DNA from: Patescibacteria group bacterium
Lineage (GTDB): Bacteria > Patescibacteriota > Patescibacteriia > Patescibacteriales > UBA12465
Assembly (NCBI GenBank): GCA_041658665.1
Contig: JBAZZR010000001.1
Coordinates: forward strand, 256,576-320,575
Direction of reading: 5' to 3'
Length of the DNA: 64,000 bases
Shown here one piece after another: positions 16,744 through 16,855 of this stretch (position 1 is the first letter of the stretch; each line of letters begins with the position of its first letter). A program made the translations under genes and the position numbers. Under the pieces are notes generated by a model. The model worked only from the letters and a program-made list of their open reading frames with translations. It made no database searches and was not told the origin of the DNA.

Positions 16744-16781
16744 TCGATATTAAATTATAGTACATTTATCAATAACAAAAC

Positions 16782-16855
16782 GGGTTCGTAGCTCAGTTGG
16801 CTAGAGCGTCAGATTGTGGATCTGAAGGTCGCGGGTTCGAGCCCCGCCGTTCCCA
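16782..16855 (+). tRNA. tRNA-His (anticodon GTG), non-canonical acceptor end
   Basis: Hand-folded cloverleaf: acceptor GGGTTCG/CGTTCCC, D arm GCTC-AGTTGGCTA-GAGC, anticodon arm TCAGA-TTGTGGA-TCTGA, T arm GCGGG-TTCGAGC-CCCGC, discriminator A. There are two U-U mismatches (4:69, 5:68). No encoded G-1, since base 16781 is C. Confidence 0.8.

Follow-up and report, generated by a model that had tools for sequence, protein, structure and literature searches.

A tRNA-His gene without encoded G-1 and with a tandem U•U in its acceptor stem, and its histidyl-tRNA synthetase, putatively independent of G-1, in Patescibacteria

The 64-kb stretch of DNA from a Patescibacteria group bacterium analysed here (contig JBAZZR010000001.1, positions 256,576 to 320,575; hereafter the window) contains a tRNA-His gene (16782–16855) that does not encode the guanosine at position -1 (G-1), carries A73 as its discriminator and has two adjacent U•U mismatches in the acceptor stem. 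The gene appears functional, being neither a pseudogene nor a product of assembly error, and the tandem U•U is conserved and derived. The tRNA is probably charged by a family of histidyl-tRNA synthetases (HisRS) that could act independently of G-1, in a radiation, the Candidate Phyla Radiation (CPR), where G-1 would have been lost repeatedly. A probability of about 0.7 is assigned to this reading.

The G-1 of tRNA-His is among the most conserved tRNA identity marks. Bacteria encode it almost universally, the one exception being a clade of Alphaproteobacteria with A73, G1•U72, U20a and a divergent HisRS (PMC3245924, PMC3064791, PMC4338351, PMC9976931). This clade, given as the bacterial exception in an earlier note on the window, is indeed the sole one named in the accessible literature, where the lack of G-1 in bacteria figures as one isolated event in Alphaproteobacteria (PMC4338351, PMC9976931). 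No report of G-1 loss in CPR was found in the searchable literature. The results described below indicate a second bacterial loss of G-1, phylogenetically broad and apparently repeated, which follows different rules: G1:C72, a free N73 and a Gln118 kept in the enzyme.

The tRNA-His gene

The gene is called as tRNA-His (gtg) by ARAGORN at 16782–16856, with the anticodon at position 35, and the Rfam tRNA model (RF00005) matches 16782–16855 with 65.1 bits (E = 7e-12). In the Rfam alignment 4:69 and 5:68 are the sole non-standard pairs ('vv' NC marks). From G1 to A73 the gene comprises 74 nt on the + strand, and all of its parts given here lie on that strand. The anticodon GTG (16816–16818) is invariant across all relatives. 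The 5' acceptor strand GGGTTCG (16782–16788) holds U4 and U5 (16785–16786), the 3' acceptor strand CGTTCCC (16848–16854) holds U68 and U69 (16850–16851), and these form the symmetric tandem (5'-GUUC-3')x2 with the pairs U4•U69 and U5•U68. Direct reading gives C at position -1 (16781) and A as the discriminator (16855), which is followed immediately by CTC, so that CCA is not encoded. The earlier note had recognized the GUG cloverleaf, A73, the missing G-1 and both U-U pairs. It had let the gene run from 16781 to 16855; the C at 16781 was read correctly, but it is the -1 base, and G1 lies at 16782.

Two canonical bacterial traits, the encoded G-1 and a C73 pairing with it, are lacking in this tRNA, and the GUG anticodon and the standard cloverleaf are present. 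Apart from its end and the U•U tandem it is canonical and G+C-rich (61%, in a window of ~39% G+C). Its D-loop, AGUUGGCUA, has 9 nt and includes U20a; this position is C in the related locus L120, and the D-loop of L128 has 8 nt. The cloverleaf was not recovered in a single-sequence minimum free energy (MFE) fold, which is uninformative in this case because the 5' acceptor strand GGGUUCG duplicates a sequence of the T arm.

The identical 14-nt stem GGGUUCG/CGUUCCC occurs in the window, in L003 (a Patescibacteria metagenome-assembled genome by GTDB), in L120 and in L121/L122/L129, that is, in independent NCBI, ENA and JGI assemblies. HisRS identity to the window enzyme is 82% for L120 and 71% for L121/L122/L129. 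Within this U•U clade compensatory changes are found in the T stem (C50:G64 to U:A) and in the anticodon stem (U27:A43 to C:G). Across 16 distinct tRNA-His genes linked to the same HisRS family the cloverleaf is 96.7% paired, with 12 pairs changed on both sides, and none of 500 shuffles reaches the observed value.

A sigma-70-like promoter, TTGACA-16-TAATAT with a TG extension (16716–16743, + strand; 10 of 12 matches in a consensus scan), lies ~38 nt upstream of G1 and is promoter-like by consensus match only. An intrinsic terminator (16859–16899, + strand), composed of a hairpin (16859–16887) and a T-run, begins 4 nt past the discriminator. It folds with -13.4 kcal/mol (z = -6.9), and the hairpin is kept in six relatives, with four pairs changed on both sides. 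The consensus terminator scan was blank at tRNA-His because the hairpin loop exceeds 8 nt; the terminator was shown by folding and alignment folding instead. The gene thus appears to form a transcription unit of its own, whose leader (roughly 30 nt) would need RNase P and whose trailer would be removed before CCA addition.

These properties bear on two alternatives already considered in the earlier note. The first is a decaying, specialised or redundant copy, with a canonical G-1:C73 gene elsewhere doing the real work. Two adjacent acceptor mismatches are typically seen in pseudogenes or in degenerate tRNAs of organelles, and the visible part of the genome amounts to 64 kb. However, the Rfam score of 65 bits, the conservation of sequence, synteny, promoter context and terminator across 71–82% HisRS identity, the compensatory changes and the same G-1-less state in 14 lineages (see below) all argue against such a copy, and it is very improbable. 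The low score, lost conservation and missing expression signals by which tRNA pseudogenes are recognized are not observed here. No second tRNA-His was found by ARAGORN or Rfam in the 64-kb window, and CPR genomes of ~0.8 Mb usually have single tRNA copies; the gene is probably the only tRNA-His gene of its genome. The second alternative, a sequencing or assembly error producing the T's at 4/5 and 68/69, has next to no chance of being correct in view of the identical stem in the independent assemblies L003, L120, L121 and L122/L129.

The HisRS family and the distribution of G-1

The presumed partner enzyme is encoded 7.7 kb upstream of tRNA-His (7672–9114, + strand). It is a HisRS of 480 aa, of non-E. 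coli type, with the Pfam domains tRNA-synt_His and HGTP_anticodon. In PDB comparisons full-length matches were obtained with 3net (219 bits), 6nhi and human cytoplasmic HisRS (179 bits); HisRS of E. coli and Thermus thermophilus are matched by the C-terminal part only (95–101 bits), and those of Trypanosoma brucei and T. cruzi modestly (103–104 bits). The enzyme carries ALRFDHTV and stands closer to human HisRS and 3net than to the E. coli enzyme, in agreement with the earlier statement that a HisRS of the LR(F/Y)D(H/L)TV type is located ~7 kb upstream. Its nearest relatives are metagenome proteins, followed by those of Falkowbacteria/Patescibacteria (~59%) and Desulfobacterales (~54%).

Residue numbering was anchored on an E. 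coli sequence 100% identical to 1KMM, and the Rhizobiales HisRS sequences used for comparison are database records. According to the alignment to E. coli, the motif-2 loop of the window enzyme is FRTDTPQNGRYRQF (residues 121–134; 8032–8073, + strand), and motif 2 reads D-T-P-Q-N-G-R-Y-R where E. coli has E-R-P-Q-K-G-R-Y-R. Thr125 replaces Arg116 of E. coli (Arg115 of T. thermophilus), Ala occupies the position equivalent to Arg9 (E. coli) or Arg7 (T. thermophilus), and the equivalents of Gln118, Arg121 and Arg123 are retained. In the complex of T. thermophilus HisRS with its tRNA, Arg116/Arg115 binds the phosphate and base of G-1 and also G1, and the contacts of the enzyme with the 3' strand extend from C68 to A76, Arg7 touching the C68 phosphate (PMC4357726). 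In all family members but one, which is fragmentary, the equivalent of Arg116/Arg115 is T, S, N, K, Q or P, and that of Arg9/Arg7 is A, G or S. Because motif 2 and the pocket differ from those of the Rhizobiales G-1-less type, and identity is 35% to that type compared with 27% to E. coli, the enzyme represents a third type of HisRS and not the Caulobacter type.

The distribution of G-1 among relatives was obtained from one metagenome scan by HisRS alignment with 10-kb flanks, enzyme and tRNA being taken from the same locus; L217 was added later. Fourteen distinct lineages linked to the HisRS family lack G-1, position -1 being A in five, C in five and T in four, and never G. N73 in the 14 genes is A in six, U in seven and C in one. 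Three further family loci (L141, L146 and L170) have the canonical G-1:C73, and G1:C72 is found in all 16 family tRNAs. A73, one of the features pointed out in the earlier note, is present in the window and does not extend to the whole group, since the close relatives L120, L128 and L217 have U73 and L139 has C73. In a neighbour-joining tree of HisRS the partners of canonical and of G-1-less tRNAs are interleaved, which suggests repeated loss of G-1.

Two further observations concern position -1. The tRNA-His of L139 (11454–11528) combines C73 with C at -1, the discriminator being kept while G-1 is lost, and may be an intermediate state. C occupies -1 in 5/14 G-1-less genes compared with ~10% C at positions -2 to -8; this excess may reflect a cleavage-site preference of RNase P, the lineages not being independent of one another.

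The co-evolved, altered identity rules suggested in the earlier note are in line with the non-E. coli type of HisRS; inside the family, however, no co-variation with the tRNA type is seen. Such co-variation was sought for the residues of the G-1 pocket and of motif 2, and none was found within the family; N73 likewise shows no relation to the residue that comes after the Gln118 equivalent. The motif-2 loop and pocket regions are alike in members located beside canonical and beside G-1-less tRNAs, for which reason a strict co-evolved one-to-one switch was rejected. The family is rather predicted to be indifferent to G-1, so that both G-1 and N73 could drift under it.

Alternatively, the mature tRNA could keep an extra 5' nucleotide, either G-1 added by a Thg1-like 3'-5' polymerase or N-1 kept after RNase P cleavage one nucleotide upstream. 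In eukaryotes Thg1 adds G-1 opposite A73 as the discriminator. Thg1-like proteins occur in some bacteria, and the one from B. thuringiensis accepts substrates with A73 in yeast. Pairing of the -1 base with N73 would be possible in 7 of the 14 lineages, but this is the chance level (5.5 expected, P = 0.27), and -1 differs (C and T) between the near-identical genes of the window and L003, so that there is no sign of a retained N-1 nucleotide. N73 varies (A, U or C), and a templated polymerase of bacterial or archaeal type would yield differing -1 bases instead of a uniform G-1. The HisRS is devoid of the arginines binding the G-1 phosphate. The search for a Thg1-like gene proposed in the earlier note was accomplished for part of the window, the Thg1/Thg1-like protein domain being absent from the 46 of 57 window open reading frames scanned with Pfam; a link between Thg1 and CPR was not found in the accessible literature. 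An extra 5' nucleotide is accordingly regarded as improbable.

The preferred reading, in which a G-1-less tRNA-His is charged by a G-1-independent HisRS, could be realized as follows. Transcription of the tRNA would begin at its own promoter and stop at its own terminator. RNase P would cut at the normal +1 site, since C at -1 cannot pair with A73, and the mature tRNA would start at G1 without G-1. CCA, which is not encoded, would be added post-transcriptionally. The HisRS whose gene lies 7.7 kb upstream would then charge the tRNA, recognition being most likely G-1-independent and directed mainly at the invariant GUG anticodon arm, by analogy with HisRS of Caulobacter, Trypanosoma and Acanthamoeba. 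Precedents for G-1-independent HisRS have been described (PMC3064791, PMC4338351). Repeated loss of the encoded G-1 and loss or drift of N73 identity in the radiation would be possible since G-1 is dispensable for this family of enzymes.

Several points weigh against this reading. The mature 5' end and the specificity of the enzyme are deduced from sequence. The motif-2 and pocket regions are the same in family members beside canonical tRNAs, so these regions by themselves are no proof of G-1 independence, and human HisRS, which requires G-1, also lacks the Arg116 equivalent. The part of the genome read is 64 kb, and a second tRNA-His or a Thg1-like gene could be located elsewhere. The invariance of the acceptor stem in the U•U clade (n = 4 distinct sequences), discussed below, is only suggestive.

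The tandem U•U and the gene neighbourhood

In the 16-gene alignment all acceptor cells are paired except for the two U•U positions in the four clade members, and in the 12 other sequences 4:69 (UG, CG, UA, AU) and 5:68 (GC, AU, CG) covary normally. Since the close relatives L126, L128 (GGGUCCG/CGGGCUC) and L217 (GGGUACG/CGUACCC) have fully paired acceptor stems, the tandem is derived and limited to one subclade; by the neighbour-joining tree of HisRS, L128, with its paired stem, may branch inside or outside the U•U clade. The fewest-step route to the tandem leads from an L217-type GUAC/GUAC to GUUC/GUUC by A5>U and A69>U. The sequence GGGTTCG of the 5' acceptor strand (16782–16788) is exactly repeated in the T arm (G51–G57, 16834–16840), and this repeat might, as a matter of speculation, have templated the A5>U change. 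A search for more U•U members through the SLOG gene adjoining tRNA-His (described below) yielded L217 as the sole new tRNA-His.

The tandem costs about 4–5 kcal/mol compared with paired versions. The MFE structure (-21.9 kcal/mol) is nevertheless that of the acceptor/T minihelix with a 2x2 UU loop, all of the other five acceptor pairs being G:C. A tRNA-Ser(GGA) gene ~5.7 kb downstream of tRNA-His (22496–22581) has a fully paired acceptor stem, so the U•U is not common to the other visible tRNA of this genome; the same arrangement is found in L003 (1485–1570).

Acceptor mismatches were scored by T-loop anchoring with an Rfam cross-check. Among all bacterial loci fetched, a non-standard acceptor pair is present in 27 of 123 tRNA-His and in none of 60 other tRNAs. 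Canonical G-1:C73 tRNA-His in which 6:67 is U•U or C•U, often joined by U5•U68, occur in Bacteroidota (L011, L016, L022, L024, L029, L037, L039–L041, L043, L049, L052, L064, L085, L093, L095, L112, L118), and U6•U67 is found in canonical G-1:C73 tRNA-His of Tisiphia (L047, L099, L100). Rfam alignments confirm three of these cases. The exact stem GGGTTCG/CGTTCCC is present in four tRNAs of viral contigs from IMG/VR, with Lys-CUU, Asp-GUC, Leu-UAA and CUA suppressor anticodons (L193, 3250–3324; L196, 421–496; L205, 1833–1907; L206, 2418–2491); L193 and L205 hold arrays of 12 and 21 tRNA genes, respectively. Among 160 viral tRNAs no other double mismatch recurs. The U•U oddity pointed out in the earlier note is therefore real, but it is confined to a subclade and, given the similar mismatches in Bacteroidota and Tisiphia, less singular than it seemed.

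The tandem U•U could also be a positive identity element or an anti-determinant replacing G-1:C73, if HisRS reads the narrowed GUUC/GUUC helix at 68–69 in the way alanyl-tRNA synthetase reads G3•U70. Both mismatches are invariant in the clade, even though one substitution (U>A or U>G) would be enough to bring back a pair and double substitutions have been fixed in other stems. The contacts of T. thermophilus HisRS with C68–A76 described above include that of Arg7, replaced here, with the C68 phosphate, and all 27 acceptor mismatches in the bacterial loci belong to tRNA-His. The HisRS of the clade further has a private C-terminal extension (...VITELAKKLTEGVKHEN; 9061–9111, + strand, by alignment). 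This extension (residues ~464–480, ITELxxKxxxGVKHE) is found in the window enzyme and in P0002, P0003 and P0005, and is absent from more distant family members. However, P0003 is a 73%-identical HisRS like that of L128, and the L128 stem is paired. Moreover, the same stem in Lys, Asp, Leu and suppressor tRNAs of viral contigs is not histidine-specific, and sister lineages with HisRS 60–72% identical manage with fully paired stems. In the tRNA of the clade 11 positions are variable, none of them in the acceptor stem, and for four sequences this is weak statistical support for selection (P = 0.08). A role of the tandem in tRNA identity is thus rather doubtful.

Likewise unlikely is the combination of two steps, in which a large part of Patescibacteria/CPR dropped the near-universal G-1:N73 rule, repeatedly and under a G-1-indifferent HisRS, and one clade of them in addition recruited U•U at 4:69/5:68 as a determinant or anti-determinant. 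If this were true, helix irregularity would underlie an identity element not described before, similar in kind to G3•U70 for alanine. The mismatches in other tRNA-His, the viral tRNAs and the P0003/L128 case point to the GUUC/GUUC tandem as a generally tolerated helix variant. On the preferred reading of a G-1-less tRNA with a G-1-independent enzyme, the tandem would have arisen in one subclade as a mild helix irregularity, clamped by five G:C pairs and tolerated by the translation apparatus. Its fixation and persistence in the clade may reflect selection or simple tolerance.

The gene of an aromatic amino-acid (histidine-type) ammonia-lyase (9104–10768, + strand; Pfam Lyase_aromatic, 498 bits) overlaps the end of the HisRS gene by 11 nt in the window. 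The pair, with the lyase immediately 3', is also found in L120, L121, L123, L124 and L126; in the Falkowbacteria contig L124 tRNA-His lies 2.5 kb downstream of it, and in L120 a urocanase gene is located 0.9 kb upstream of HisRS. In these small genomes the pairing is a conserved link of histidine charging with histidine catabolism. Directly upstream of tRNA-His is a gene of the SLOG/TIGR00725 family (16132–16674, + strand; Pfam LDcluster4). The order SLOG, tRNA-His is shared by L120, L121, L126 and L217, and the longer order HisRS, ammonia-lyase, HAD hydrolases, SLOG, tRNA-His recurs in L120, L121/L122 and L126/L127. The SLOG gene occurs widely in CPR; only within the immediate clade does tRNA-His adjoin it.

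Two other genes of the window were noted. A stand-alone NYN-domain protein (PF01936; 23790–24344), belonging to the common LabA-like family, is encoded 7 kb downstream of tRNA-His; NYN/PIN-like nucleases include protein-only RNase P enzymes. A protein with a peptidoglycan-binding domain and bacterial collagen triple-helix repeats is encoded at 25379–27088 on the - strand.

Comparison with known systems

The animal mitochondrial tRNAs resemble the window tRNA in that U•U acceptor mismatches are tolerated in vivo; they differ from it in being degenerate and organellar, from AT-rich genomes. The tRNA-His of Bacteroidota and Tisiphia share with it conserved mismatches (U•U or C•U) midway along the acceptor stem. 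Unlike the window tRNA, they keep G-1:C73 and an 8-bp stem, and their mismatches lie one step lower (5:68/6:67 instead of 4:69/5:68). These pyrimidine mismatches were not found in the literature searched, and an unstudied tendency towards conserved pyrimidine mismatches in the acceptor stems of bacterial tRNA-His is thereby exposed.

With eukaryotic cytosolic tRNA-His the window gene has in common A73 and a G-1 that is not encoded, and its HisRS scores 179 bits against the human enzyme and 95 bits against that of E. coli. In contrast to the eukaryotic system, Thg1 was not found in the window open reading frames scanned, and N73 varies among relatives. The motif-2 loop of the window enzyme is two residues shorter than that of human HisRS. 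Another parallel is the cytosolic pair of Trypanosoma brucei and Acanthamoeba castellanii, in which tRNA-His has A73 and a Watson-Crick 1:72 pair without G-1 (PMC4338351, PMC3561963). Thg1 is not involved there, and the loss is polyphyletic. The T. brucei and A. castellanii enzymes are indifferent to G-1 and do not reject it, as would suit a family partnering both tRNA types; those systems are eukaryotic, and the window HisRS is known here from its sequence. Since the family partners both types, the order of events in an identity switch, possibly permissiveness of the enzyme first and drift of the tRNA after, becomes testable, and candidate orthogonal HisRS/tRNA-His pairs are offered.

The Caulobacter crescentus type (PMC3064791, PMC4357726) is the bacterial system without encoded G-1. 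The window tRNA resembles it in A73, the 9-nt D-loop and U20a, and the window HisRS, like that of the Caulobacter type, is longer than the E. coli enzyme and carries an LR(F/Y)D(H/L)T(V/A) motif; it has 35% identity to the Rhizobiales sequences. Genes of tRNA-His that combine A73 and G1•U72 with a base other than G at -1, as in the Caulobacter type, were also observed outside Alphaproteobacteria, in Zixibacteria, Ignavibacteria and some Bacteroidota (L018, L055, L057, L065, L072, L076, L078, L081, L097, L102, L103, L109, L111). In L018 and L109 the HisRS adjoining tRNA-His has an alpha-like motif 2 (KPDPG and KLDPG, respectively) with Gln118 lost, and the L109 enzyme is 42% identical to Rhizobiales HisRS.

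The window system differs from the Caulobacter type in several respects. Its tRNA has G1:C72 and not G1•U72, a major determinant for C. crescentus HisRS (PMC3064791), and among its relatives N73 is A, U or C instead of a conserved A73. Its HisRS keeps the Gln118 equivalent in PQNG, where Rhizobiales have E-K-P-G-P-G with Gly118 (PMC4338351). In the Caulobacter type Asp-Asp replaces the Gly-Gly of the G-1 pocket (PMC4357726); the window pocket reads RDNGRTSAEQ as compared with DD(D/E)Q in Rhizobiales, the alignment of this loop being uncertain. In addition, the window HisRS family also partners canonical G-1:C73 tRNAs, and the acceptor stem bears the tandem U•U. The window system would thus work like the G-1-independent systems described so far, while departing from the Caulobacter type in the features tested, namely G1•U72, Gly118, the DD pocket and, at the level of the family, the conserved A73.

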